Shown: positions 7,742 to 60,118, counted from the first letter of the stretch. The stretch: DNA of 64,000 nucleotides from a bacterium (GCA_016699045.1 CP064957.1:799613-863612), one strand, 5' to 3'. The notes: generated by a model from the letters alone, not told the origin. Numbers and translations are program-made.

Positions 7742-8887
7742 TTAATTCAATATTTGGCGATAAAGTGCCATATGTTGAGCAAGCATGGCGGGAACGCCAA
7801 AGTCAGTTAATGAATCTTGATGATTACTTAAACGTTGATATAGTGCCTTATTGTTGGCTATTATGGCGATCATTTTGCCTAATTGTTGCCAATTTCCGGG
7901 TTCAATTAAATAGCCATTAATGTCATGTTGAATAACTTCATTGATTCCACCAACATTATAAGCAACTACAGGAATTTTGCTTAAACGTGCTTCAATAATA
8001 CTACATGGTAAGCCTTCCCATAGCGAACTGAGCGCGAAAACGTCCCACGAAGTGAGCCATGGCCTGATATCGTGTTGCCAACCAAGAAGATGTACCGAAT
8101 CGTGCATGTTGTTGCGTTTAATCCATTCTTCTAGTTCCGTGCGTAATATGCCGTCGCCAATTATTTCTAATTCAAGTGTTTGATGAGTAGTTAATGTGGT
8201 GGCAAGCTGAAATGCTTTGAGTAAATCGAGAAGATTTTTTTGAGGTTTGAAGCATGACACCGTGCCAATACGAAACGGCTTCATGCGGTTGAGGCAGCGA
8301 GCTGGTAGATAAAATTTTTCATATTCAACGGCAGCCCTAATAATCGAACTTTTACGTGCAAAGTCTGGCAAAAGCTTACATCCTTCTGTGTGATCTTTTG
8401 TTGAAACGCAAACAAAGTGGGTGGTGATTAATGTGGTTATCCATTCAAATGCGTAAATTAAAAGCCAGCGCAGGCGCGGTTGATAATCATTAAAACCAAA
8501 ACCATGAATCGTGTGAACGCGTGTTTTAATGCCTGCAAAAAATGCAGCCCAGCGACCAATAATGCCCGCCTTGGTACTATGTGTGTGCACGACAATAGCG
8601 GGGTATTTTTTTTTTAAGGTACGCAAAATGCGTACAATATTTCTAAAATTTTTGATTTCATTAAGCAATGATTTGAGGCGTGCTTCGTTTTTAAATGAAT
8701 CAAGAAGAAATACTTGATCAAATTGTTTTGCATGCGTTACAAGTGGTCCTTGGTTGCCCGAGATGAGGCTTGTTGAAAAATCAGTATCATTGATTCCTGA
8801 AACAAGAGAAAGGCAAACTTTTTGTGCTCCGCCAAGCTCAAGTTTTGTGACAATGTAAACCACGTGGAGGTTTTTAGTCTTCTTCAT
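7742..8887 (-). CDS. glycosyltransferase family 4 (GT-B fold)
   Basis: N-terminus VVYIVTKLELGGAQKV. C-terminal EGLPCSIIEARLSKIPVVAYNVGGINEV is the typical GT4 E-x7-E region. Confidence 0.7.
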   Translation of the reverse strand: MKKTKNLHVVYIVTKLELGGAQKVCLSLVSGINDTDFSTSLISGNQGPLVTHAKQFDQVFLLDSFKNEARLKSLLNEIKNFRNIVRILRTLKKKYPAIVVHTHSTKAGIIGRWAAFFAGIKTRVHTIHGFGFNDYQPRLRWLLIYAFEWITTLITTHFVCVSTKDHTEGCKLLPDFARKSSIIRAAVEYEKFYLPARCLNRMKPFRIGTVSCFKPQKNLLDLLKAFQLATTLTTHQTLELEIIGDGILRTELEEWIKRNNMHDSVHLLGWQHDIRPWLTSWDVFALSSLWEGLPCSIIEARLSKIPVVAYNVGGINEVIQHDINGYLIEPGNWQQLGKMIAIIANNKALYQRLSNHQDSLTDFGVPAMLAQHMALYRQILN

Positions 8888-8907
8888 TATGCTCTTTCAA
8901 AAGCGTT

Positions 8908-9879
8908 TTAGCTGCTTATTTTTAAGATCAGTAAAAATGACACGATCATGGCATAAATAACTGATGATTCAATAAATGTGCTGGTCAGCAAGGTGAGCTT
9001 GATCATCAAGGGATAGCTGTTTGGCTCTTGAGCAATTTGTTCACAACTCTTTGATGCTGAAAGGCCAATGCCAGCTCCGGTGCCCAGAGCTCCAAGTCCC
9101 AAGGTAACTGCGGCTGTTAAAATAACAGGTCCTTGTGGCAAAAACGTAGTGCCCAGCGTTGGGACATAAAACAGAAACATGAGTGCAAGGAGCAAGCAAA
9201 AAATTATAGGTGTTTCAATAAATGCCTGCCCAAATAGCGCGAAAGGAAAAATTTTGTTGTAGGCATTTTTGTTAACGCTGACGGCTGTACAGGCCGCTTG
9301 GCAAAAAAGTGCTTGCCCGATTGAAGGCCCAATGCTGGCAAGGCCGATGACTAAGCCCGCGCCTAAATTTTTAACACCATCAATAACGACCATATTGTCG
9401 TTGATGGTTGTTTTGATAAGTAATGAAATAATAAAAGAAAAGAGAACAGGGGCTTCAATAATTGATTGACATAACAACATGAGCGTTATAATTTTTTGAG
9501 CAAAAAAAGGTTGGCGGCCAATTCCTTGCGTGGCAGCACTTACTACAAAACTTGAAGCAATACTGGTTGAAAGAGCGGCCAAACCAATGGCTAGTCCAAT
9601 GCCGAGTTCTGATAAGCTAAGTTCTAATGTTATTTCTTTTGGGGCGCCTAGTAGCATCAAAAGTGACATAACAAGTGCAATCACAATGCCGCTTTCAATG
9701 AGCGCAAGGCCGATAAGCATTGCTTTAAACGTGTTGTCTCGGCCGAGTTGTTGGCGTTCCATTGCTTGTAAGGCGTTCATGCCTGCCAAGCCTTGTCCCA
9801 ATCCACCGCCAATAGTTGCAAGGCCTAGTGCCAAAATAGCCGAAAAATAATGAAGAAAATTAGCAAACATCGTGATCAC
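8908..9879 (-). CDS. atpE: F-type ATPase c subunit, four hairpins fused in one 323-aa polypeptide
   Basis: Four tandem units of about 80 aa, each with a Gly-rich helix 1 (e.g. GLATIGGGLGQGLAG). Loops resemble RQP (ERQQ, GRQPF, NKNAY, QEPNS). Helix 2 carries a Glu in each unit (LIESG, IIEAP, FIETP, FIESS). The gene lies directly downstream of atpB; an alternative ATG is at 9870. Confidence 0.8.
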   Translation of the reverse strand: MITMFANFLHYFSAILALGLATIGGGLGQGLAGMNALQAMERQQLGRDNTFKAMLIGLALIESGIVIALVMSLLMLLGAPKEITLELSLSELGIGLAIGLAALSTSIASSFVVSAATQGIGRQPFFAQKIITLMLLCQSIIEAPVLFSFIISLLIKTTINDNMVVIDGVKNLGAGLVIGLASIGPSIGQALFCQAACTAVSVNKNAYNKIFPFALFGQAFIETPIIFCLLLALMFLFYVPTLGTTFLPQGPVILTAAVTLGLGALGTGAGIGLSASKSCEQIAQEPNSYPLMIKLTLLTSTFIESSVIYAMIVSFLLILKISS

Positions 9880-10726
9880 TTTCTTCTGATACTAAAGGTT
9901 GTGGTTCATCGTGGTCTGTTACGCCCATCGATAAGTAAGTTGCTGTTAGCATAGTTAAAACGAATGCTTGGATTAGTCCTTCAAAAAAGCCAAAAAACAT
10001 TTGAATGAAAACCAAGGCAAAAAGCATGATATGAAATATTTTGTGCAGGCGTGCAAAATAAGTAATGTGTTTGAGTACTGGAAATCGATATGTAATGATG
10101 CTTAACAAGATCATTACGAGCGTGAGCCCAAGAAAATGAAATTTAAGGGGGCCTCCTACAAATTGCATAATCATGCTAAAAATAATGCTGCCACCCAAAA
10201 TATTACCAAAAAGTCGAAAAGACATTGAGGCAATTTTGGCAAGCTCACCAATAACATTGATTGGTGCTAAAAAGAAAATTGGTTGTATAAATTCTTTTAA
10301 GTAATGTTTCATGCCTTTAAATTTAATTTTGTACCATTGTACGTAGGTAAAACTGGTAAGCCCCAAAGCGACGGTTGTATTTAGATCATTCGTTGATTCA
10401 TCCAAAAAAGGGATAAGGCTGGTGGCGCTACAAAAAAGAGTAAATAGAAAAAGTGACGTAATAAAAGCAAAGTGGTTATAAATCAATTTACCAAATGATT
10501 CTTTGGTTAAATCAATAAAAAAGCCAATGACCGTTTCGTAGGCAACCGAGATGATGGTTGGGTTACGTTTTAAGAGATATTTGCCCGCTATTGCTAAAAC
10601 AAAGAGCATCCCCATGGCAAACCAGGTGTACATTAATGTGTCTAAATGTAGGTGCCAAAAGGGGCCATTGAGACCAAATACCTTGAAAGGTGCAATTTCT
10701 TTATACTTAAAAAGATTAATATTCAT
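9860..10726 (-). CDS. atpB: F-type ATPase subunit a
   Basis: Polytopic membrane protein with the subunit-a signature SFRLFGNILGGSII, which includes the essential Arg. The ATG at 10726 overlaps the stop of the upstream small ORF (ATGA). Confidence 0.85.
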   Translation of the reverse strand: MNINLFKYKEIAPFKVFGLNGPFWHLHLDTLMYTWFAMGMLFVLAIAGKYLLKRNPTIISVAYETVIGFFIDLTKESFGKLIYNHFAFITSLFLFTLFCSATSLIPFLDESTNDLNTTVALGLTSFTYVQWYKIKFKGMKHYLKEFIQPIFFLAPINVIGELAKIASMSFRLFGNILGGSIIFSMIMQFVGGPLKFHFLGLTLVMILLSIITYRFPVLKHITYFARLHKIFHIMLFALVFIQMFFGFFEGLIQAFVLTMLTATYLSMGVTDHDEPQPLVSEESDHDVC

Positions 10727-16307: not shown

Positions 16308-16443
16308 TAATCTTTATTTTCTGTTAAAAAATCGGTTAAGGTAGGAAAAGGTCAATTATGCTTTAATTTAAGCATAATTTTGGGCCAAAGGCAAAAATTG
16401 ATCTTTTTGGGGTAATTTGGGGTTTTTCTTAACCGGGGCGGGG

Positions 16444-18138
16444 ATGAAGAATTTTCTATGGTTATTTTTATTGAGCTTATTTGTGAAATGGCCGGTTGTT
16501 GCTGCTACCCCGGCTGATTATGCAACGTTGACCGATTGGTCAGTTGCTTGTTTTACCAAACTACCAGAATATGACCATTTGAGTGGGTATGATATTATTA
16601 ATGGTGAGAGTCTATCAGAAGTTTACAAAACAACGCTGACTGCTCAACAATTCAAAGATAAGATGGAAAAATTTGCAAAGCGTAGCAAGCAAAAGCTTCA
16701 AGTCAAAGATAATTGGGTGAGTGCTGATGCGCCACAAGATTCATTGTTTGATATTCAAGCAAAGCATGATAATGAATTTGAGCATGCATTTATCCAAAGA
16801 TTAGAGATTCCAGCAAATAGCGAAGTTTGTTTTATGGGCGATTATCACGGTAGCGTGCATTCACTGTTGCGCAATCTATGGCGGTTGAGTGTTGATGGAT
16901 ATCTTGACGACAATTTTAAATTTAAAAAAGATAATTTTTATCTGATCTTTTTGGGCGATTTTGTTGACCGCGGCCGCTATGGGGCTGAAGTGTGGTACTC
17001 ACTGATGCAACTTAAGCTTGCCAATTGGGACAAAGTTCATTTGCTGCGTGGCAATCATGAGACAAGTTTGGCAAGTAAAAAATATGGCTTTTTAGGGTGG
17101 AGTGCTATCAAGGGTAAAGGAAAGTTAGAGGGCGAAGTTTGTATTAAATTTGAAACTGATATTGAAAAAGAACGATCTGAGCAGGGAGAAATTGGTAAAA
17201 AAATTTTAAATCTCTATCACTTTTTGCCCTTTGCAATCTTTTTGGGTGTTAAAGATAAAAATGAATTTGTACAATGTTGCCATGCTGGCATAGCCGTGAA
17301 TGATGGAGACACAGATCTTTTTGATGTCAAGCCTTTCATTAAAGAAAATAAAAAATTTCAAAAAATTTCTAAATTTCAAGAAGGCTTTCAGTGGAGTGAT
17401 TTTTCTCAGGATAAAGATGACTCAGACTTTGCTTCGGGATGTCGTGGGACGAAATATGGCATAGAAGCTACGGTTGCTGGGGGGCAAGAATACTTAAATC
17501 AAAATAATCTCAAAGCTTTTTTTCGAGGCCATCAAGATCAGTGTTATGGTTTTAAAATGTTTTTTGAAAATGAGGCTCAGAAGAATGCGGTTATTGAAGG
17601 CAAGAAAGAGCGATTTGGGGTTTATCCGTTTGGTCCCTATCATTGGAAATATATTGTTTCTGACTCTCATCAAAGAGAAGCAGATGGCTTTTTAGTTAAA
17701 GATTATAAACCAATTTTTACGTTTACTTCAGCATCAGAAGGCCAATCGGTGCCCTTCGATTGTTATGGCATTGTTATGGTTGGTAATGGACTCTATGATA
17801 ACTGGCGCTTAAAAATCTATGAAACAGGTTTGCCAAATGAGTTAGTTTCAAAAATTCAGGATGCGTCGATATCAAATCGTAATAAAAAATATGTTGCTAT
17901 TGGTTCAATCACAAGCGATTTAAGAGGTGCGATTGCTGTTGAAGACAAACAGCTTAAAATTAATTGGCTTAGCGTGCCATTGAAAGAAGAAGATTTAAGA
18001 TCAAAATTGGGTGATATGTTACCATCAGCTCCTAAACCGAAAAAATTAGAAATAACTTTGCAGGAAGCTCTTAAGGCCCTCAAAACAAAATTTGCAGTAT
18101 TGGCAGAGCAATTGGCGAGATTAGCACCAGGGCATTAA
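16444..18138 (+). CDS. PPP-family Ser/Thr protein phosphatase (eukaryote-like), signal peptide, C-terminal amphipathic helix
   Basis: GDYHG, GDFVDRGRYG, LLRGNHE, CCHAG and FFRGHQ form the complete PPP metallophosphatase motif set. N-terminus MKNFLWLFLLSLFVKWPVVAA. Confidence 0.85.
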   Translation: MKNFLWLFLLSLFVKWPVVAATPADYATLTDWSVACFTKLPEYDHLSGYDIINGESLSEVYKTTLTAQQFKDKMEKFAKRSKQKLQVKDNWVSADAPQDSLFDIQAKHDNEFEHAFIQRLEIPANSEVCFMGDYHGSVHSLLRNLWRLSVDGYLDDNFKFKKDNFYLIFLGDFVDRGRYGAEVWYSLMQLKLANWDKVHLLRGNHETSLASKKYGFLGWSAIKGKGKLEGEVCIKFETDIEKERSEQGEIGKKILNLYHFLPFAIFLGVKDKNEFVQCCHAGIAVNDGDTDLFDVKPFIKENKKFQKISKFQEGFQWSDFSQDKDDSDFASGCRGTKYGIEATVAGGQEYLNQNNLKAFFRGHQDQCYGFKMFFENEAQKNAVIEGKKERFGVYPFGPYHWKYIVSDSHQREADGFLVKDYKPIFTFTSASEGQSVPFDCYGIVMVGNGLYDNWRLKIYETGLPNELVSKIQDASISNRNKKYVAIGSITSDLRGAIAVEDKQLKINWLSVPLKEEDLRSKLGDMLPSAPKPKKLEITLQEALKALKTKFAVLAEQLARLAPGH

Positions 18139-18169
18139 TGTGAGCAAAATATATAAAATAAGGGCATTT

Positions 18170-18198
18170 TTGACTTTGTGCGGGTATTGAGATACCAT
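18170..18198 (+). promoter_or_regulatory. putative sigma70 promoter of ssrA
   Basis: TTGACT (18170-18175), a 17-nt spacer, then TACCAT (18193-18198), about 30 nt upstream of the mature tmRNA 5' end. Confidence 0.4.
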
Positions 18199-18228
18199 AT
18201 AAACAATTATCTTTGAAAAGCAAAGTAC

Positions 18229-18625
18229 GGGGGCGTAACGGTCTCGACGTGGTATTTTGTGCTTTGAGAGCATGCCGAGTTTTGTATGGGGGCTCGTTAA
18301 AAAACATTCAAAAAACAATAAATGCAAACGATATGTTTGTTACTAATAATACAGCAAGCTATTATAATGGCGCTGCTGTATGTGCCTAATTCGTTAGGGT
18401 TAGTCTAGAGGATTGAGCGTGTCTATCAGTAAGATCCACTTGTATTAAAAAGATAGAACCTTTGCGTAAGATTTTTTAGTTGGGTAGCGCAATTGTATCA
18501 CTAAACTGGCTTTTACATTTAACTATGCCCCAGAGGAGATGTAAGAGTACAATCAGGGGAGAAGCATGTGGTGCTTAAAGTTCCGAGTGTTGCGGACATG
18601 GGTTCGACTCCCATCGCCTCCACCA
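18229..18625 (+). ncRNA. ssrA: tmRNA (transfer-messenger RNA)
   Basis: 5' GGGGGCGUAACGGUCUCGACG pairs with 3' ...GGACAUGGGUUCGACUCCCAUCGCCUCCACCA, giving an acceptor stem with a G3:U pair, a T-arm and CCA. A conserved GCAUGCCGAG box is present. The tag ORF runs GCA AAC GAT ... TAA (18324-18389). Confidence 0.92.
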
Positions 18626-18867
18626 TACTTCGCCAAGGCTTCGTATGGCAAGCCATTTTCTTTAACGGATTGATAATTATAAAAGATTATGTCTCGTTAG
18701 AGCAATGCGAAGTATGCCCTTCGAAGCTAATTGCGTAGCAATGCGAAGTAGGGCCCCGCTTTTCATTTCCGCAGGAAATGCCTGGCAAGCCATTTTCTTA
18801 GATGATTAATCAATATAAAGTATGCCCTTCAAAGCTCTGATAAGAGCGAAGTAGGGCTCCACTTTTT
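18626..18867. repeat. repeat-rich non-coding spacer downstream of ssrA
   Basis: The 17-nt exact repeat TGGCAAGCCATTTTCTT occurs at 18646 and 18783. AAGTATGCCCTTC occurs at 18710 and 18818. GCGAAGTAGGGC occurs at 18743 and 18846. GCAATGCGAAGTA occurs at 18702 and 18738. The inverse copy CATACTTCGC abuts the tmRNA 3' end. Confidence 0.7.
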
Positions 18868-19530
18868 CTAACTAATTTTCTTTTCCCAAATCGAGAGTGT
18901 GTTGTCTGTTTCCATGCCAGTATCAACTTGTGTCCACGCCAGTGCTATTTTCATATCAGGCGCCAATCCATAACCAAAGTATCGACACATAGCATCCAGT
19001 GGTTGATAACCTTCTGGTCTGAGAGGATGATCTTCTGGTCGGTCTACCATCATAAAAATGGTTGAGCGAAATCCTTTTGCACGAGCATCGTCTTCTACAA
19101 TTTTTAAGCTTTCATAAAAACGTTTTACAATGCCTTTTTTACGATATTCCGGATACAGCATAACTTCGCCGATGTATAAATAATCATCGAGATTGAGACC
19201 TTTTTTGATGAATGGTGCTTTTATTTCCTCAAGTTCTTCTACGAGTGGGATTGCATTTGCAAAACCTACAACTTTGTCATTATCAAATACCAGCAAAATA
19301 ATAGCGTTTGGCGATTTAAAATAAGTTTCTAAATACTCGACTTCATACTCAACCGTGCCTTGGTACAGATACGGAAATTCTTTAAAAAGAAAGCGAATGT
19401 TAATAATGTCGCTGGAATATTGTCGAGCTTCAGGTCCTGAAAATGTTCGAATTTCGAGTGCTGCACTAAAAACATTTTCTGAGATAATTAATTGCGCAAG
19501 TAAAGCAAAAGAGAGTAGTAATTTCTTCAC
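18868..19530 (-). CDS. GNAT-family N-acetyltransferase with signal peptide
   Basis: The acetyl-CoA motif A region is YPEYRKKGIVKRFYE. N-terminus MKKLLLSFALLAQLIIS. GTG start 12 nt after the stop of the upstream USP gene. Confidence 0.65.
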   Translation of the reverse strand: MKKLLLSFALLAQLIISENVFSAALEIRTFSGPEARQYSSDIINIRFLFKEFPYLYQGTVEYEVEYLETYFKSPNAIILLVFDNDKVVGFANAIPLVEELEEIKAPFIKKGLNLDDYLYIGEVMLYPEYRKKGIVKRFYESLKIVEDDARAKGFRSTIFMMVDRPEDHPLRPEGYQPLDAMCRYFGYGLAPDMKIALAWTQVDTGMETDNTLSIWEKKIS

Positions 19531-19542
19531 AATATTTCTTTC

Positions 19543-20922
19543 CTATTTTAACGAACTTAACTTTGTTGCCAGCTCGGCCAATTTAAATTTGAGGGCTTGA
19601 AGGGCAGTTGTCAAATTTTCCATTTGTTGGTTTGGGCTTTCTGTTTTTTGATAAAAAAGAAGGTAGGGTGTGAATATTCCTGTAGCTTTTTTTTCAAGAT
19701 TTCCATCGTGGGGATATATGCCTGCCGAAAGAACCTTATTGATTTCATTTGATTCAAATTTTGTTGTTGTTTCATCATCGCAATACCACCAGTGATTATC
19801 TGCTTGGTTATAAACAAAAGCCGTATAATGTCCACCACCAAAAGGCCCTTGATGCAAAACAAAGCTGATAAGTTTGTAGTATACAGGCTCTGTTATTTGA
19901 TTTGAAAAATAGTTACTTTTAAGAATGAGATAATTGTTAAGAGGTACAGGATTGTAGATTTTTGTCGTGATATCTTGAATCATATCGTAGGCAAAGCGAT
20001 TCAATTGAACGATAAGAATTTCTGGCATTGGGTTGTTTGCGTCAAGTAAAATACCCTTGGTTGCATCTACTTTTGCGTTGCATGCTTGGCAGAACCACTG
20101 ATTATCGCCCGTCATATTTTCTTGTTGAAAATAGTAATCAAGTAAGAATTCCATTGGCATAGTAGTTGAAGATTTTTCAGGTAGTGGTTGAGAAAAATTG
20201 AGTATTAGTTTACGACCTTGCTCTGTTTTTTCTGTTTTATGTGATTTATTGGCTTGAGTAATGTTTTTGTGTTGAATAGTATCTTTAGTTTCAAAACTTA
20301 ACATTTTTTTAACAGAGTTGTTTTTTTTATCAACCGTGATTAGTGAGTCGATAAGCGGCATAAGAAACTCATCGCTATCTTGTTGATTTTCAAAAAAAGG
20401 TATGAGATTGTTATAAGTATGAAGATTTGTGTACAGATTTTTTTGATCTTTTGTAAGCTTTGTTGTGCCTGGAGCAAGTTGGATTGGTGGTATCTCTTTG
20501 AGTTCGTAGGCTTCACCTCGCAATCCTTGGATTATGGATGGCACTTGTAGTACTTCATTAAGAATGTTGGATTGCATTGCTCGGCACGTAATAAAGTCGC
20601 GAAACGTCTTGGCATCATCGGTAGTTAAAGCCTTTGGACTAGTAGTTATTAGCTTTTCTAAAAAATCTACATATTTTCCTGCTACCGTGTTTTCATTGCC
20701 CACCAAGGCATCTTTAAATGGTTGAGAAAAAAGATGTTGTGTTAGCGGCCGTATGTAGTACAAGGCTTGCATGGCAGCATTCATAAAACATGAGTTTCCC
20801 ATATAGTTATTAATACCAACCGGTGGTGATTTATAAAGCCTGTCCAACGTGGTTTTTGTTGTGCCAAACATTTGCGAAATAGTCACAACGTTGAGCATTA
20901 AGCCCAACAAAATCTTTTTCAT
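19543..20922 (-). CDS. ubiquitin-specific protease (peptidase C19/USP) family, eukaryote-like, with signal peptide
   Basis: Cys box GINNYMGNSCFMNAAMQALYY. His box VLHQGPFGGGHYTAFVY...WWYCDDETT. GGAG RBS. N-terminal hydrophobic signal sequence. Confidence 0.85.
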   Translation of the reverse strand: MKKILLGLMLNVVTISQMFGTTKTTLDRLYKSPPVGINNYMGNSCFMNAAMQALYYIRPLTQHLFSQPFKDALVGNENTVAGKYVDFLEKLITTSPKALTTDDAKTFRDFITCRAMQSNILNEVLQVPSIIQGLRGEAYELKEIPPIQLAPGTTKLTKDQKNLYTNLHTYNNLIPFFENQQDSDEFLMPLIDSLITVDKKNNSVKKMLSFETKDTIQHKNITQANKSHKTEKTEQGRKLILNFSQPLPEKSSTTMPMEFLLDYYFQQENMTGDNQWFCQACNAKVDATKGILLDANNPMPEILIVQLNRFAYDMIQDITTKIYNPVPLNNYLILKSNYFSNQITEPVYYKLISFVLHQGPFGGGHYTAFVYNQADNHWWYCDDETTTKFESNEINKVLSAGIYPHDGNLEKKATGIFTPYLLFYQKTESPNQQMENLTTALQALKFKLAELATKLSSLK

Positions 20923-20951: not shown

Positions 20952-23900
20952 TTATTGAGAATCAAATTTAAATTGAATAGGGCTTTGTGAAGAAGATGAT
21001 GGTGATTGATCAAAGTTATGAAATTTCTTTTCTTCCATATGCAAAACGCGTTGTGGAAATGCAAAGTGGATGCCCTTTTCTTTAAACGCTTTAAAAATAT
21101 CCTCGCGAATGGTGCTAGCAATGGTCCATTGTTCTTTAACGCGGCGCGTGCTGATAAATGCACGAGCTAGGAAAAATAAAGCGCTTTCTTCGAAATCTTC
21201 TAAGCGTACAATTAATCGTGGCACGCGCAAAATGGTCGGGTTGCTTTGAATAACTTCGGTAATAATATTTTTGGTCAAGTCGGGATCTGATTTATAGTCA
21301 ACGCGGATTCTGATATCAAAGCCGGTAGCAAAACGTCCCTTGCTCCAATTATCTATTTTTTTGGCGATTAAATCTTTATTCGGGATGATCATTGAGTGAT
21401 TGTAAATATTGACGATGGTTGTCGTGCGCGCATCAATTTTATGGACGGTGCCTCGTGCTCTTTCGTTGTCTTCAACCATGATAAAATTGCCAATTTCAAT
21501 CGGTCGCTCGATCAGCACCAAAAAGCCGGCGATATAGTCAGCTGCTAAATCTTTCACGGCAAAACCGGCAGCAACAGATAGCAACGTACCAACGTACCAA
21601 AACATATTTTCAAGATGGATGAACATAAAGCCAAGAACAGATGCTGATAAAATGATGGCATAATGCAAGATGCGTGAGTACGTATTTTGTGCGCCGGGTT
21701 CGGTACGCAAAATGTCGAATAATTTATTGAGTACAAATTTGTGTAGTAGCGATGAAGCGATAAAGCCGCCAACAATAAATAAAATAAGCGAAACAAGTTG
21801 GACCAAGCCAAGCTTGTGTTCAGGGCCGATTGGGATAACAAGTTCGGTAGAAAAGAGGCGCCATAAATCTGCTGGTGTGTAGGCAAAACCCCAAATGCGT
21901 GCTACTAAAATGAAGGTAACGATCATGAGTGTAAAGAAGCTGAAAATTACGACAAAGCCATAGTAAGTTTTAGCATGCTCAAATTTGTCGATAATTTCTT
22001 CTTCTTCTTCTTTCATAAACAAAAAGACAGAATATTTACGAATGTAGTAATGCACAATAAATAACGCAGAAATGAGTAGTGCGGTTGATGGCACCACAAA
22101 TGCTAAGAACCACGCTAAGTTTGAGTAGCCGATGTATGGATTGGACAAAATAAGCAAGCTCATAATGAAGAAAAATACGGGATAGTAGTGTGCGTCAATT
22201 TGTTGTTTGATCCACACTAAAAAAGTATAACGTTCTGGAATAAGGCGTAACACATCTTCTTTGCTAAAAAAAAGCAGAACAGTAATTACCAAAACGAGCG
22301 AATAGGCGCCAATCAAAACCGCTGGGAAGATGGTTGGTTGGTCAGGATAGTAGCTTAAAAACGCGCGTCTGAGAGGGAGTAATGTAGCGGTTGAGTAGCA
22401 TACGAAGGTAATCAGGAGCAAGAAGCGATCTTGTAATTTTTCGGCAAAGAAAAAGAAACTTAAGCGGCGATTGAGTTCTTTTAAACTGACGAGCAATTCG
22501 CGCGATAAATAAACAAAAATAGGAATCGTGAGTAAGTAAAACATTGAGACATAATACGGCTTTGCAAAAAAACTGATGGTCGAAAAAATGAATTTGAAAT
22601 CAAAAATAATATGCGCATAAATAAAGACCCAGCCAAGCATAATGCCCAGATGCTCCAAGCTAAATTTAAGCAATGAAATGATAATGTTGAGCGATAAGAA
22701 GCCGATATTTTTACGGTCGCCTGTGAGGCGCAGCGTTGCGCGCTTAAGCATAAATTGTAAAATAATTTTGAGGCACGCATAAATAAACAGGAAGAAAAAC
22801 AAGAAGAAAAAGAGCGCCAAAATGTCATAAAAATTTATTGTTTTTATGGCAGCAAGTAAGATTGATGGGCCAAGATATTGTGGCGTGTCCCAGAAAAATT
22901 CTTTAAAAAAATTTTCGGCTTCCAATAACGAACGCTTGAAGTCTTCAAATGAAATGGCTTTTGGCGAAACCTTCCATAAGCCTTCGTAATTCTTTCTTCG
23001 TTCAATCATTTCAATAATGAGCTCGTACTGACTGTTAATTTCTTCTTGTTTGTTAATCAATGCAGAAATAACAACCAAATATTCGTTACTTAAATCAACT
23101 TGTTGTTTGAGTAGTTGTTTGATGACGGTTAAGCGCTTGATGATTGTTTGGAGCGCTGGAGCCTGATCTTTAAATACCGTATCTTTTTTTTCAAGAAGTT
23201 TATTTTTTTCAAGTTTCAAATCTTCTTTTTTGCGTCCGACATCGAGTTGTTTGATGCTAATTTTTTCGCGCTCTTTTTTGTATTCTTCCAAGGTTTGGGT
23301 GGAAACATGTTTGAGATTTAAATATTTGTTTAAAAACTCATCAAGATCAAGTTTTTGTGTTGAAATTTTATAGCGAATATCAACGAGTTGGTATTGAAGA
23401 TCTTTGAGTTGTGTTGCTTGTGCTGCTACTAGTTTTTTACTTTCTAAAAGCTTTATGTCTTTTTCTAAAACTGCATATAAAGCGTGTAGGCGGCTAGATT
23501 CGCTTTCATTGAGGTAGTAGTTTACGGTATCTTTTTTGTCATCTGGGAACGTATTAATTTTGCGGCGAAAGGCATCTTGTTGAATACTAACGCGCCCTTT
23601 TTCAGCTTCCTTAGGTTTAATTTTTTTGTCGATTTCATCGCGTTCTTTACGTTCTTTTTGTTGGGCTTCATCAAGTTCTTTTTTTGCAAAATCAACATCG
23701 CTGAGCGTGAGGACCAGTAAATCTTCGATAAGTGCTAGGGTTTCTTTTTGTCTGATGTGCTGATTTTTAAGAAGGTCTACTTCATTTTCTTTGAGGCGAG
23801 CTTCTTGTTCAAGTAACTTTATTTTGTGATCGCTCAGATCAATTTTTTGTTCGAGTAGATTGTTTTCTTGGTTGTAAAGATCTTCAGTGTCTTGAATAGG

Positions 23901-24572
23901 GATGGCTAGCATTTCTTTTTTATCGCCACTTTTTGCTTCATTAACAACTTTGTCGCGTTCTTTAAGATTGATTTCAACTTGTTTTTTGAGTGAATTGATA
24001 AGCTCACGTTCTTTGTTTTTAAGCTTGTTTAAATCGTCTTTCTTTTTTTCTTCTTCGGTTATTTCTTGCAGAGTATCTGTTGCTTGTTTTTGTGCAGTTC
24101 TTAGCTCTTGCCAGGAATAAACCGTCTTAAGACCCTGTGCGCGTGGTGCTTGTAAAAAGTCGATCGTTTTTTCTAGTACTTGTATATTTTTTTCATAGGT
24201 TTCTTCAATGTTTTTTATAGTGTTTTGAATAAGTATGAGGTGTTGCTTTTGGTTGGTTAAAAGATCATTTTTTTTATTGAAGTAATGAAGTATTTCTGGT
24301 GACTTTGGTGCTGCTTTTTGTTTTTCAAGTTCTGCGGCATCTTTGGCAATAGCTTCTAGGGTGGCGGTTATTTTTTTGTTTTTTTCGATATGGTTTTTTT
24401 GAAATTCTTCAAATTCTGTTGTGACTTTTTTGTGTTGCTTTTTTTTAGCATCTTTGGCAGTTAAAAAAGGAAGCCGCGCTGGTTGTTGCGGAAGAAAAAA
24501 CTCTATAGCTGGCTGGAGTATTGCAGATGGAAAAATCAAAAAAATAGAAAGAATAATAATTTTTGCGCGCAT
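20952..24572 (-). CDS. MscK/KefA-like mechanosensitive channel (MscS family) with long coiled-coil periplasmic domain
   Basis: 1206 aa: signal peptide, about 550 aa of Lys/Glu-rich coiled coil, about 11 TM helices, and the MscS core AADYIAGFLVLIERPIEIGNFI...GTVHKIDARTTTI. Confidence 0.8.
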   Translation of the reverse strand: MRAKIIILSIFLIFPSAILQPAIEFFLPQQPARLPFLTAKDAKKKQHKKVTTEFEEFQKNHIEKNKKITATLEAIAKDAAELEKQKAAPKSPEILHYFNKKNDLLTNQKQHLILIQNTIKNIEETYEKNIQVLEKTIDFLQAPRAQGLKTVYSWQELRTAQKQATDTLQEITEEEKKKDDLNKLKNKERELINSLKKQVEINLKERDKVVNEAKSGDKKEMLAIPIQDTEDLYNQENNLLEQKIDLSDHKIKLLEQEARLKENEVDLLKNQHIRQKETLALIEDLLVLTLSDVDFAKKELDEAQQKERKERDEIDKKIKPKEAEKGRVSIQQDAFRRKINTFPDDKKDTVNYYLNESESSRLHALYAVLEKDIKLLESKKLVAAQATQLKDLQYQLVDIRYKISTQKLDLDEFLNKYLNLKHVSTQTLEEYKKEREKISIKQLDVGRKKEDLKLEKNKLLEKKDTVFKDQAPALQTIIKRLTVIKQLLKQQVDLSNEYLVVISALINKQEEINSQYELIIEMIERRKNYEGLWKVSPKAISFEDFKRSLLEAENFFKEFFWDTPQYLGPSILLAAIKTINFYDILALFFFLFFFLFIYACLKIILQFMLKRATLRLTGDRKNIGFLSLNIIISLLKFSLEHLGIMLGWVFIYAHIIFDFKFIFSTISFFAKPYYVSMFYLLTIPIFVYLSRELLVSLKELNRRLSFFFFAEKLQDRFLLLITFVCYSTATLLPLRRAFLSYYPDQPTIFPAVLIGAYSLVLVITVLLFFSKEDVLRLIPERYTFLVWIKQQIDAHYYPVFFFIMSLLILSNPYIGYSNLAWFLAFVVPSTALLISALFIVHYYIRKYSVFLFMKEEEEEIIDKFEHAKTYYGFVVIFSFFTLMIVTFILVARIWGFAYTPADLWRLFSTELVIPIGPEHKLGLVQLVSLILFIVGGFIASSLLHKFVLNKLFDILRTEPGAQNTYSRILHYAIILSASVLGFMFIHLENMFWYVGTLLSVAAGFAVKDLAADYIAGFLVLIERPIEIGNFIMVEDNERARGTVHKIDARTTTIVNIYNHSMIIPNKDLIAKKIDNWSKGRFATGFDIRIRVDYKSDPDLTKNIITEVIQSNPTILRVPRLIVRLEDFEESALFFLARAFISTRRVKEQWTIASTIREDIFKAFKEKGIHFAFPQRVLHMEEKKFHNFDQSPSSSSQSPIQFKFDSQ

Positions 24573-45496: not shown

Positions 45497-45997
45497 CTAT
45501 TCTGTTTCTATTTTCTGTGATGAAGAGCTAATTTCGTTTGGCGATATAGCACCGCTTTGAATTAATGCTTCAATACAGGCAGAATATTCGCCTCGTATTG
45601 CTAGCTGCAGTGGTGTCATGCCGTCTTGAGCCGTGATATTTGGGTTAGCATGTTGGCTGAGTAAATAATTTATTGCAGGTGCGTTGTTGTTATTTGCAGC
45701 ATAATGAAGCGCGGTCCAGCCATTCGTGTCTATCAAGTTAACATCGGCTCCACCTGCCACCAGCGCTTTCACAATCTCTAAACAGCTGCGTTTTGCTGCT
45801 GCGTGATGCAAAGGTGCCCATTCTGCTTCTGACAACGTATTAACATTGACCTTTCTACTTTGTATAAGTTCTAAAGCAGCCGGAATGCGATTTTCACTAA
45901 TAAAATACATGAGTGTTTCAGTTGTTCCAGCGTGCAGCGTTGAGCTGGTAGTTATATGACAAACGAGAAACAATAAACCTATAAATTTCTTGACCAT
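45497..45997 (-). CDS. ankyrin-repeat protein with signal peptide
   Basis: WAPLHHAAAKRSCLEIVKALVAGGADVN, GWTALHYAANNNNAPAINYLLSQHANPN and GMTPLQLA repeats. N-terminus MVKKFIGLLFLVCHITTSSTLHA. Confidence 0.85.
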   Translation of the reverse strand: MVKKFIGLLFLVCHITTSSTLHAGTTETLMYFISENRIPAALELIQSRKVNVNTLSEAEWAPLHHAAAKRSCLEIVKALVAGGADVNLIDTNGWTALHYAANNNNAPAINYLLSQHANPNITAQDGMTPLQLAIRGEYSACIEALIQSGAISPNEISSSSQKIETE

Positions 45998-46035
45998 GAT
46001 ATACCTTTGCATTTTTAATGATAAAGTGTGCGTTG

Positions 46036-59590: not shown

Positions 59591-60118
59591 TTAATCGAGG
59601 TTTAGTTCTTGTGCTAACTGAGCTAGTTCTTGGTCTAGTGCTGTTGTTAACAAATCGATAATGGTCTTAAATTTTTTTGCCATTTCTTGATTATATTTCG
59701 ACGGTACTCGTATCTCATCTCTGCCATTTTCTGTTTTACAAAGTACGGTTTGATAAAGCATATAGCTTTCGTAGCGTTCTCGAGCAATCATGAGCGGCGT
59801 TCTACCAGAGCCATCAACTTCATTAAGCTGAGTATCTGATTCTATGAGAAGCTTAACAATATTAGCATTGCCTGAAAAACAAGCGAGATGAATTGGTTGT
59901 GATTGTGAGATATTTTTTGCGTAGATATCATCTTTGTTTAGAAATAACAACATCTCGACCTCGCCTTCATTTGGGCGTGCGCATGCAAGATGTAGTGGAG
60001 TATTGCGGTAAAGATCTTGAGGTGCTTTTGCAGGTTTTTTTGCGGTTGCTTGTAGTGATCCTTGTGAATAGGTTGCAAAAAAAGCTGCCATAAAAAAATA
60101 ACCATATTTTTTGATCAT
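59591..60118 (-). CDS. ankyrin-repeat protein with signal peptide
   Basis: NTPLHLACARPNEGEVEMLL, SQPIHLACFSGNANIVKLLIESDTQLN and GRTPLMIA repeats. N-terminus MIKKYGYFFMAAFFATYSQGSLQA. Confidence 0.85.
   Translation of the reverse strand: MIKKYGYFFMAAFFATYSQGSLQATAKKPAKAPQDLYRNTPLHLACARPNEGEVEMLLFLNKDDIYAKNISQSQPIHLACFSGNANIVKLLIESDTQLNEVDGSGRTPLMIARERYESYMLYQTVLCKTENGRDEIRVPSKYNQEMAKKFKTIIDLLTTALDQELAQLAQELNLD

Follow-up and report, generated by a model that had tools for sequence, protein, structure and literature searches.

The dockerins of cellulosomal enzymes are calcium-binding domains of about 70 residues, formed by a duplicated F-hand and covered by a Pfam model of their own (Dockerin_1). 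PBP5 and PBP6 of Escherichia coli are Sec-exported enzymes that carry a C-terminal amphipathic helix of about 20 residues, which acts as a membrane anchor. The encapsulation peptides of bacterial microcompartments (BMCs) are amphipathic helices of 15–20 residues, which are attached to the enzyme through a linker of low conservation, are found at either terminus within one enzyme family and only on a subset of homologs, and have been proposed to cluster the cargo and to bind a common receptor (PMC4594438, PMC12339742). Here we describe a C-terminal helix (the tail) carried by two predicted exported enzymes, a PPP-family Ser/Thr phosphatase and a USP/UCH (C19) deubiquitinase, which are encoded by convergent genes in a stretch of 64,000 nucleotides of bacterial DNA (GCA_016699045.1, CP064957.1:799613-863612), referred to below as the window. 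The likeness of the two tails is genuine and beyond chance. Comparison with related contigs shows the tail to be a homologous, lineage-specific module that has been moved by duplication and recombination onto predicted Sec-exported, soluble, eukaryote-like proteins of Dependentiae. It is a shared terminal helix of the leucine zipper type, possibly a docking helix, and no described precedent was found for this form; the closest architectural precedent is the BMC encapsulation peptide.

Dependentiae (TM6) are widespread and live as obligate intracellular parasites of protists; a large part of their genes have signal peptides, and many code for eukaryote-like proteins. TM6 genomes encode the Sec pathway and a type II secretion system (T2SS) with two copies of gspD (PMC4776705), while in Chromulinavorax 44% of the coding sequences carry signal peptides and vesicles have been suggested as carriers (PMC6561590). 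The exit route and organisation of the eukaryote-like exported proteins of Dependentiae have not been established (PMC6561590, PMC4776705). The window has a G+C content of 39.7%, and the closest relatives of its proteins are found in metagenome-assembled genomes (MAGs) named Candidatus Babeliales or candidate division TM6.

The open reading frame (ORF) on the plus strand matches Pfam Metallophos (1.2e-12), and the PPP signatures GDxHG, GDxVDRG and GNHE are invariant (G141, D142, H144, G145; G180, D181, D184, R185, G186; G212, N213, H214, E215). Its best Foldseek matches are PP1, PP5 and PP2A (E about 1e-15), and motifs and fold together place it among the PPP Ser/Thr phosphatases. The protein ends in KLEITLQEALKALKTKFAVLAEQLARLAPGH, and the linker ahead of the tail is where the sequence diverges from that of the orthologs P0007 and P0008. 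In the protein on the minus strand, residues 36–424 match Pfam UCH (PF00443, 3e-32), and the Cys and His boxes GNSCFMNA and GGGHYTAF are conserved with plant and other USPs, which places it in the USP/UCH C19 family; its C-terminus reads MENLTTALQALKFKLAELATKLSSLK. The interval of interest, 18058–19614, runs from the final codons of the PPP gene to the final codons of the USP gene. The sequence-only reading had proposed that a common tail is attached here to two unrelated catalytic domains, and this part of its reading is supported. The two enzymes look like host-manipulating, effector-like enzymes of an intracellular TM6/Dependentiae bacterium. The coordinates of the features are collected in the table.

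Table. Features of the tailed genes and their surroundings in the window
Feature	Position	Strand	Remarks
PPP-family Ser/Thr phosphatase ORF	16417-18138	+	573 residues from the first TTG; probable true start at ATG 16444, giving the 564-residue P0005
Sec-type signal-peptide-like N-terminus of PPP, MKNFLWLFLLSLFVKWPVVAA	16444-16506	+	Hydrophobicity heuristic; AlphaFold2 helix at residues 11-22
Pro/Lys-rich linker from phosphatase body to tail, ending in DMLPSAPKPKKLEI	18013-18054	+	AlphaFold2 pLDDT below 50 at residues 540-545
PPP tail core, LQEALKALKTKFAVLAEQLARL	18058-18123	+	Residues 548-569; followed by APGH and the stop codon at 18136-18138
tmRNA gene	18229-18625	+	Situated between the PPP and USP genes; Rfam RF00023 (142 bits); tag peptide ANDMFVTNNTASYYNGAAVCA by ARAGORN
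GNAT acetyltransferase with signal-peptide-like N-terminus, MKKLLLSFALLAQLIISENVFSA	18868-19530	-	Lies between USP and tmRNA
USP/UCH (C19) deubiquitinase ORF	19543-20922	-	459 residues; signal-peptide-like N-terminus at 20863-20922
USP tail core, LTTALQALKFKLAELATKLSSL	19549-19614	-	Residues 437-458, between the linker TESPNQQMEN and a final K; stop codon at 19543-19545
Possible degenerate acidic tail variant, LLTTALDQELAQLAQELNLD	59594-59653	-	C-terminus of a 175-residue signal-peptide-like ankyrin protein (ORF 59591-60118); marginal

The two tails share 12 of 22 residues in an ungapped alignment, which ends 4 residues from the stop in PPP and 1 residue from the stop in USP (Smith-Waterman score 45). 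When either tail is compared with the window proteome (about 18,700 22-mers), no other 22-mer shares more than 9 residues with it. A degenerate DNA pattern of the motif matches the window twice, at these two tail sites only, and 0.00 matches are expected from 100 shuffles. A hidden Markov model (HMM) for which the 22 training tails all came from other contigs, and none from the window, was run against 399 six-frame ORFs of the window and ranks USP first (independent E-value 5.5e-5) and PPP second (0.027). All three approaches agree, and the match first noticed in the sequence is confirmed. At the 12 shared residues, 8 codons are identical, compared to 3.75 expected from the codon usage of the window (P = 0.008), which suggests common descent of the window tails rather than convergence.

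The alternative is that there is no protein feature at all, and that the likeness comes from chance or compositional convergence of low-complexity coiled coils, or is the by-product of a DNA inverted repeat flanking the transfer-messenger RNA (tmRNA) and GNAT genes. Short helices of Leu, Lys and Ala are common, and the tail-coding segments do form an imperfect inverted repeat (18067–18105 and 19567–19605; 39 nucleotides, 72%, arms 1461 nucleotides apart) around these two genes. However, the HMM made without the window recovers exactly the two tails, the DNA pattern is expected 0 times, 12 identities in 22 is far above the window maximum of 9, and the motif recurs elsewhere in tandem genes of the same orientation. 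In L207, a locus from a Babeliales MAG with synteny to this part of the window (Omp85, MscS, USP, USP, PPP, KsgA, PPDK), the peptide is kept but the repeat is not, as there is a tailed USP, no tailed PPP and no GNAT ORF. The leave-window-out HMM, the codon data and the L207 synteny led us to reject the idea that the tails are merely a DNA inverted repeat around the tmRNA, and an explanation of the likeness as an artefact is almost certainly wrong. We read the repeat as a side effect of the convergent arrangement of two genes with homologous coding segments.

A third member had been claimed, namely the ankyrin protein encoded at 59591–60118. Its C-terminus does resemble the tails in LTTAL and LA.LA..L, but only if a 3-residue gap is allowed. 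It has a Smith-Waterman score of 34 (shuffle p = 0.003), which is matched or exceeded by 34 of 18,138 internal windows, and an HMM score of 0.5–2.4 bits, and with a charge of −4 it is acidic, whereas true tails are basic. It was rejected as a member on the basis of the gapped alignment, the marginal statistics and the charge. A second signal-peptide-like ankyrin-repeat protein in the window (45497–46012, minus strand, 171 residues) has no tail.

An alignment of 25 tails gives the consensus L-[IT]-x-A-L-x-x-L-K-x-K-L-x-x-L-[AS]-x-x-L-x-x-L, a perfect 4-3-4-3 heptad. Leu occupies positions 1, 5, 8, 12, 15 and 19 in 22–25 of the 25 tails and position 22 in 9 of them, and the other conserved residues are K9 (24/25), K11 (19/25) and A4 (16/25). 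The tails are amphipathic, use Leu only and have almost no aromatic residues, with a hydrophobic moment of 0.28–0.47, a mean hydrophobicity of 0–0.2, many Lys, Gln and Thr residues and a net charge of 0 to +4. A C-terminal amphipathic helix had been proposed from the sequence, and AlphaFold2 predicts for the PPP tail a single helix (residues 543–569) with a predicted local distance difference test score (pLDDT) of 84–88, which follows a low-confidence linker (pLDDT < 50). Leu is thus found at a and d over three heptads within a continuous predicted helix. The module is a three-heptad leucine zipper helix of about 22–26 residues on a flexible linker, and because the Leu heptad is perfect it is read as a leucine zipper, that is, a helix for protein–protein docking. 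In a profile search of the PDB the tails match designed Type-2 coiled coils (CC-Type2/CC-Hex) and natural zipper helices. Like these designs and the GCN4/bZIP zippers, they have Leu every 3–4 residues over three heptads, with small or charged residues at e and g; unlike classical zippers, they lack a basic DNA-binding region and are appended to enzymes that are predicted to be exported to the periplasm or beyond.

Pfam and NCBIfam contain no model for the tail, only weak generic coiled-coil matches were obtained, and no description of such a tail was found in the literature. As a conserved C-terminal element that is common to unrelated, predicted exported cargo in one lineage, it resembles C-terminal sorting and secretion signals. 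However, the C-terminal domain of type IX secretion substrates is a β sandwich of 70–100 residues, compared to a helix of 22–26 residues with no Pfam or NCBIfam match; the sortase, exosortase and rhombosortase signals (LPXTG, PEP-CTERM, GlyGly-CTERM) consist of a motif, a transmembrane helix and a basic cluster, which the tail does not have, and no NCBIfam sorting-signal model matches it; and substrates of type I secretion systems and of Dot/Icm have no Sec signal peptides, with an E-block that is acidic and Glu-rich, while a signal-peptide-like N-terminus is predicted for 24 of 25 tailed proteins, and the tails are basic or neutral. The sequence-only reading was therefore right that none of these described signals fits.

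The likeness to encapsulation peptides is closer, since both are short amphipathic helices on a poorly conserved linker, at either terminus, on diverse enzymes and on a subset of homologs. Encapsulation peptides act on cytoplasmic cargo without signal peptides, require BMC shell genes, and have a hydrophobic pattern without sequence conservation, whereas the tail is on signal-peptide cargo and has conserved A4, K9 and K11 and an all-Leu heptad. No BMC shell Pfam family was found among the called genes of the loci. The signal peptides of its cargo and the lack of shell genes in the loci are the reasons why the tail is not classed as an encapsulation peptide. With the dockerin–cohesin system of the cellulosome it shares the order of signal peptide, catalytic domain, linker and small C-terminal module on unrelated enzymes, and also species ‘dialects’. 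It differs in being a single zipper helix of 22 residues, for which no scaffoldin-like partner was identified, and the tailed proteins have no Dockerin match in Pfam, so that it does not belong to the dockerins.

A further possibility is an in-plane membrane anchor, in which the amphipathic helix would lie on the lipid surface and tether the enzyme to a bacterial or host membrane. The tailed proteins have the same architecture as PBP5 and PBP6, i.e. a predicted Sec-exported soluble enzyme with a signal peptide and a C-terminal amphipathic helix; the hydrophobic moment is similar to that of the PBP5 helix (0.43), and Lys residues flank the hydrophobic face. Nevertheless, the PBP5 helix is rich in aromatics (6 residues) and is not heptad-regular, while the tail is heptad-perfect, with Leu at every a and d position and hardly any aromatics. 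The mean hydrophobicity is low, the small Ala, Ser and Gly residues at the flanking e and g positions suit helix–helix packing, and the internal copy in a USP ortholog described below is hard to reconcile with an anchor. We consider an anchor of this kind very unlikely.

The helix might instead be directed at the host, and after delivery bind a conserved host protein or mimic a host zipper, so as to localise or activate the effectors. Basic amphipathic helices that bind calmodulin on host-activated toxins are a known example of this kind. The substrates of the cargoes are eukaryotic (the ubiquitin system, Ser/Thr phosphorylation, ankyrin), the tails form amphipathic helices of basic character, and Leu, A4, K9 and K11 are invariant across all dialects, which would fit a conserved target. 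In addition, the top PDB match is the C-terminal zipper helix of the RNA polymerase II subunit RPB3, ALSGLKKKLSDLQTQLS, which agrees with the tail at all 8 conserved positions from A4 to L19. This match is however non-significant (E = 0.13); the likeness may be due to chance, and matters only if the tail mimics a host zipper. The calmodulin-type 1-8-14 or 1-5-10 anchor spacing fits no conserved positions, and Leu-only anchors at a strict periodicity of 3.5 residues point more to knobs-into-holes packing. A host-directed role is on balance doubtful.

In related, Dependentiae-like contigs, the tail recurs on about 29 proteins from about five unrelated cargo families, namely PPP, USP, RING plus ankyrin, ankyrin, and proteins with no Pfam match, and the suggestion of one module on different cargo domains is thereby upheld. 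The 22.5-kb contig L119 encodes five tailed proteins (two PPPs, one zf-RING plus ankyrin protein and two with no Pfam match), L121 has four in a row, L210 has three tailed PPPs, and L209 has a tailed PPP and a tailed ankyrin protein. In L207, the second USP (850 residues) has a C-terminal tail. As to the proteins with no Pfam match, u155 and u402 have N-terminal segments in common with PPP paralogs, while u292 and u490 form an independent family. Among 120 PPP homologs, 12 have a significant tail, always at the C-terminus, and 3 more have divergent heptad tails. Orthologs of the window enzymes were expected to keep it, and this holds in part: it is present in P0006, an 85% ortholog of the PPP, internal in P0002, an ortholog of the USP, and absent from P0007 and P0008, which are 55% orthologs of the PPP.

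The module has a strong preference for the C-terminus, though not an absolute one. About 245,000 positions were scanned for the heptad in a dialect-agnostic way, which gave 24 matches, 12 of them at most 10 residues from a C-terminus (odds ratio 27, p = 6e-12), and in this sense the expected confinement to C-termini is seen as an enrichment. It is not strict, as three proteins show. In P0002 the zipper lies 69 residues from the end, in an internal loop that is inserted ahead of the final USP strand (the AlphaFold2 model of P0002 has a mean pLDDT of 36 and is unusable). In the L210 protein PPP625 (8032–9909, plus strand) it is 86 residues from the end, and in a PPP from L157 (9692–11065, plus strand) the zipper, PEALTLLKTKLVKLADSLSNV, comes immediately after the signal peptide. 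The 86-residue extension that follows the zipper of PPP625 is basic and Pro-rich (..RPGKRPPGKSG..KRRPGKRKKRPK..).

Signal peptides were called here by a hydrophobicity heuristic only. By this measure those first noticed on PPP, USP and the ankyrin protein are plausible, but signal peptides are too common in the phylum to be a good discriminator. An enrichment of the tail among signal-peptide proteins was nonetheless found in the loci compared: an N-terminus that resembles a signal peptide, with no transmembrane segment besides, was seen in 24 of 25 tailed proteins, compared to 76 of 207 other proteins (about 37%; p = 5e-9), a contrast that is partly confounded by family. This raises the question of a true secretion or delivery signal, i.e. 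a periplasmic helix recognised by an outer-membrane machine (the T2SS with two GspD, or an undescribed one) that would move Sec-exported effectors out. The almost constant pairing of tail and signal peptide on soluble proteins, the strong terminal bias and the effector-like nature of all the cargo speak for it, as do the presence of Sec and T2SS in Dependentiae and an effector exit that is not established (PMC4776705, PMC6561590). Against it, the tail is internal or N-terminal in some proteins, and P0007, P0008 and in all 108 of the 120 PPP homologs have no tail yet keep their signal peptides. No machinery gene linked to the tailed genes was found in the loci read, and no T2SS substrate is known to use a linear helix signal. 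A secretion signal is therefore distinctly unlikely, and the original idea of a strictly C-terminal secretion or sorting tag is not supported by the placements in P0002, L210 and L157 or by the tail-less P0007 and P0008.

The tails are more alike within contigs than between them (identity 0.55 and 0.41 respectively; at variable positions 0.35 and 0.17, permutation p < 2e-4), and this holds across different cargo. In L119, for example, all five tails read KLK.[S/N/T]L in place of LK.KL. In the tandem arrays this is in part clearly the result of DNA duplication or gene conversion. In L121 the likeness extends about 30 nucleotides beyond the stop codon, and in both the L119 and the L121 arrays the tail, its 3′ flank and the signal peptide of the next gene have been duplicated as a unit; in L119 this unit of tail, stop, spacer and next signal peptide is repeated nearly verbatim. 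From the tandem duplication of tails it is concluded that the module is mobile at the DNA level. The arrays (L119 1931–15601 and L121 8442–16137) consist of 4–6 PPP paralogs and PPP fragments and are located downstream of IleRS and YbeY, and they look like a hotspot of segmental duplication or gene conversion.

What the tail does can be proposed from these features. We favour, at a probability that we put a little short of even, a tag for coiled-coil docking or assembly, which recombination carries to different cargoes. The tails would pair as zippers, either among themselves or with a coiled-coil receptor of bacterial origin that resembles a tail, and phosphatase, deubiquitinase, E3-like and ankyrin adaptor proteins would in this way be joined in bundles or by tethering, whether at the envelope, on the surface or inside vesicles. 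Such docking would be analogous to that of encapsulation peptides or dockerins, and unlike a signal that is threaded through a secretion pore. This reading is preferred because the a/d core is all Leu with small or Lys residues at e and g, because N-terminal and internal placement would be tolerated by a docking helix and not by a C-terminal signal, and because near-identical tails on different proteins of one compartment would inevitably cross-associate.

Several points weigh against a docking tag. Three heptads are near the lower limit of a stable coiled coil. About 20 of the 29 tailed proteins are PPPs and PPP fragments, so that the variety of cargo comes down to about five independent families. 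Recent tandem duplication or gene conversion accounts in part for the dialects, which need not reflect co-evolution with a partner. The scan covered about 0.9 Mb of locus fragments, not a whole genome or proteome, and the taxonomy of most tailed metagenomic contigs was inferred from PPP homology to named TM6/Babeliales MAGs and from a G+C content of 33–40%. Finally, oligomerisation or binding, and any partner of the tail, are proposals drawn from sequence and predicted structure.

The predominance of PPP paralogs among the carriers also suggests a simpler explanation, in which each enzyme has an ordinary oligomerisation or autoregulatory helix with no common role, either a dimerisation cassette that can be reused or an inhibitory helix at the PPP C-terminus. 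PPP enzymes are known for C-terminal regulatory helices, as in the inhibitory helix of calcineurin and PP5. However, the same homologous helix is found on USP, RING plus ankyrin, ankyrin and no-Pfam proteins, and near-identical tails in one compartment would cross-associate anyway, so that this explanation merges into the docking model. As a separate account it is highly improbable.

The tail could also have a more specific role, as an address label in a route, so far undescribed, by which Dependentiae deploy their effectors. Proteins would pass through Sec to the periplasm, where a tail-specific coiled-coil receptor would load them into outer-membrane vesicles, display them on the surface or hand them to an outer-membrane translocon. 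We regard this as unlikely, though it has consequences that are considered below.

Searches beyond the related contigs added little. A tail-HMM search of the whole protein library (E ≤ 1e-3) found only the seeds and a eukaryotic TPR protein, P0125, which was rejected as a false positive caused by its 7 repeats, and a word-index search of the library with the tail alignment A2 gave no match even at E ≤ 10. The degenerate DNA pattern has 73 matches in genome contigs, of which only those in L068 (the tail of P0014) and L101 (the tail of P0002) are real; the others are scattered across phyla, mostly out of frame, and were discarded. Its 43 matches in viral contigs were likewise discarded, being wrong-frame matches in one phage gene family and antisense tail-fibre repeats. 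The strict pattern is too narrow for mapping taxonomic spread. The contig L068/L125 (CAYSDC010000008.1), which encodes the TM6-type tailed PPP P0014, is labelled ‘uncultured Pseudomonadota bacterium’ and differs very little from contigs L123 and L124 of JGI and ENA; its taxonomic label may be wrong.

The region from USP through GNAT and tmRNA to PPP recurs elsewhere with identical USP and PPP tails, namely on short contigs of a highly fragmented NCBI assembly with a contig number above 44,000 (L001; GCA_020049755.1, JAHZTO010044063.1) and in a single SRA run (L002; SRR11088367). These may derive from a host-associated or mixed assembly. The tmRNA is unrelated to the tails. The GNAT protein is a predicted exported acetyltransferase that adjoins Lys-rich tails, and the matching position in L207 has no GNAT ORF. 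Directly upstream of USP is an ORF of 1206 residues (20952–24572, minus strand), whose counterpart by synteny in L207, a protein of 1205 residues from the MscS family (MS_channel), aligns with it. The ORF starts in a signal-peptide-like manner, and its membrane domain is preceded by a long coiled coil, rich in Lys and Glu, that spans about 500 residues.

The tail provides a sequence handle for listing candidate effectors in MAGs, a peptide that can serve as bait for a bacterial or host partner, and a putative heterologous docking helix that is compact and natural. Should its role be no more than the oligomerisation of enzymes, it would count as a modest evolutionary curiosity, a case of module shuffling. 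If on the other hand it is an address label, the tail HMM would enumerate the effector repertoire of a phylum without a classical effector injection system.

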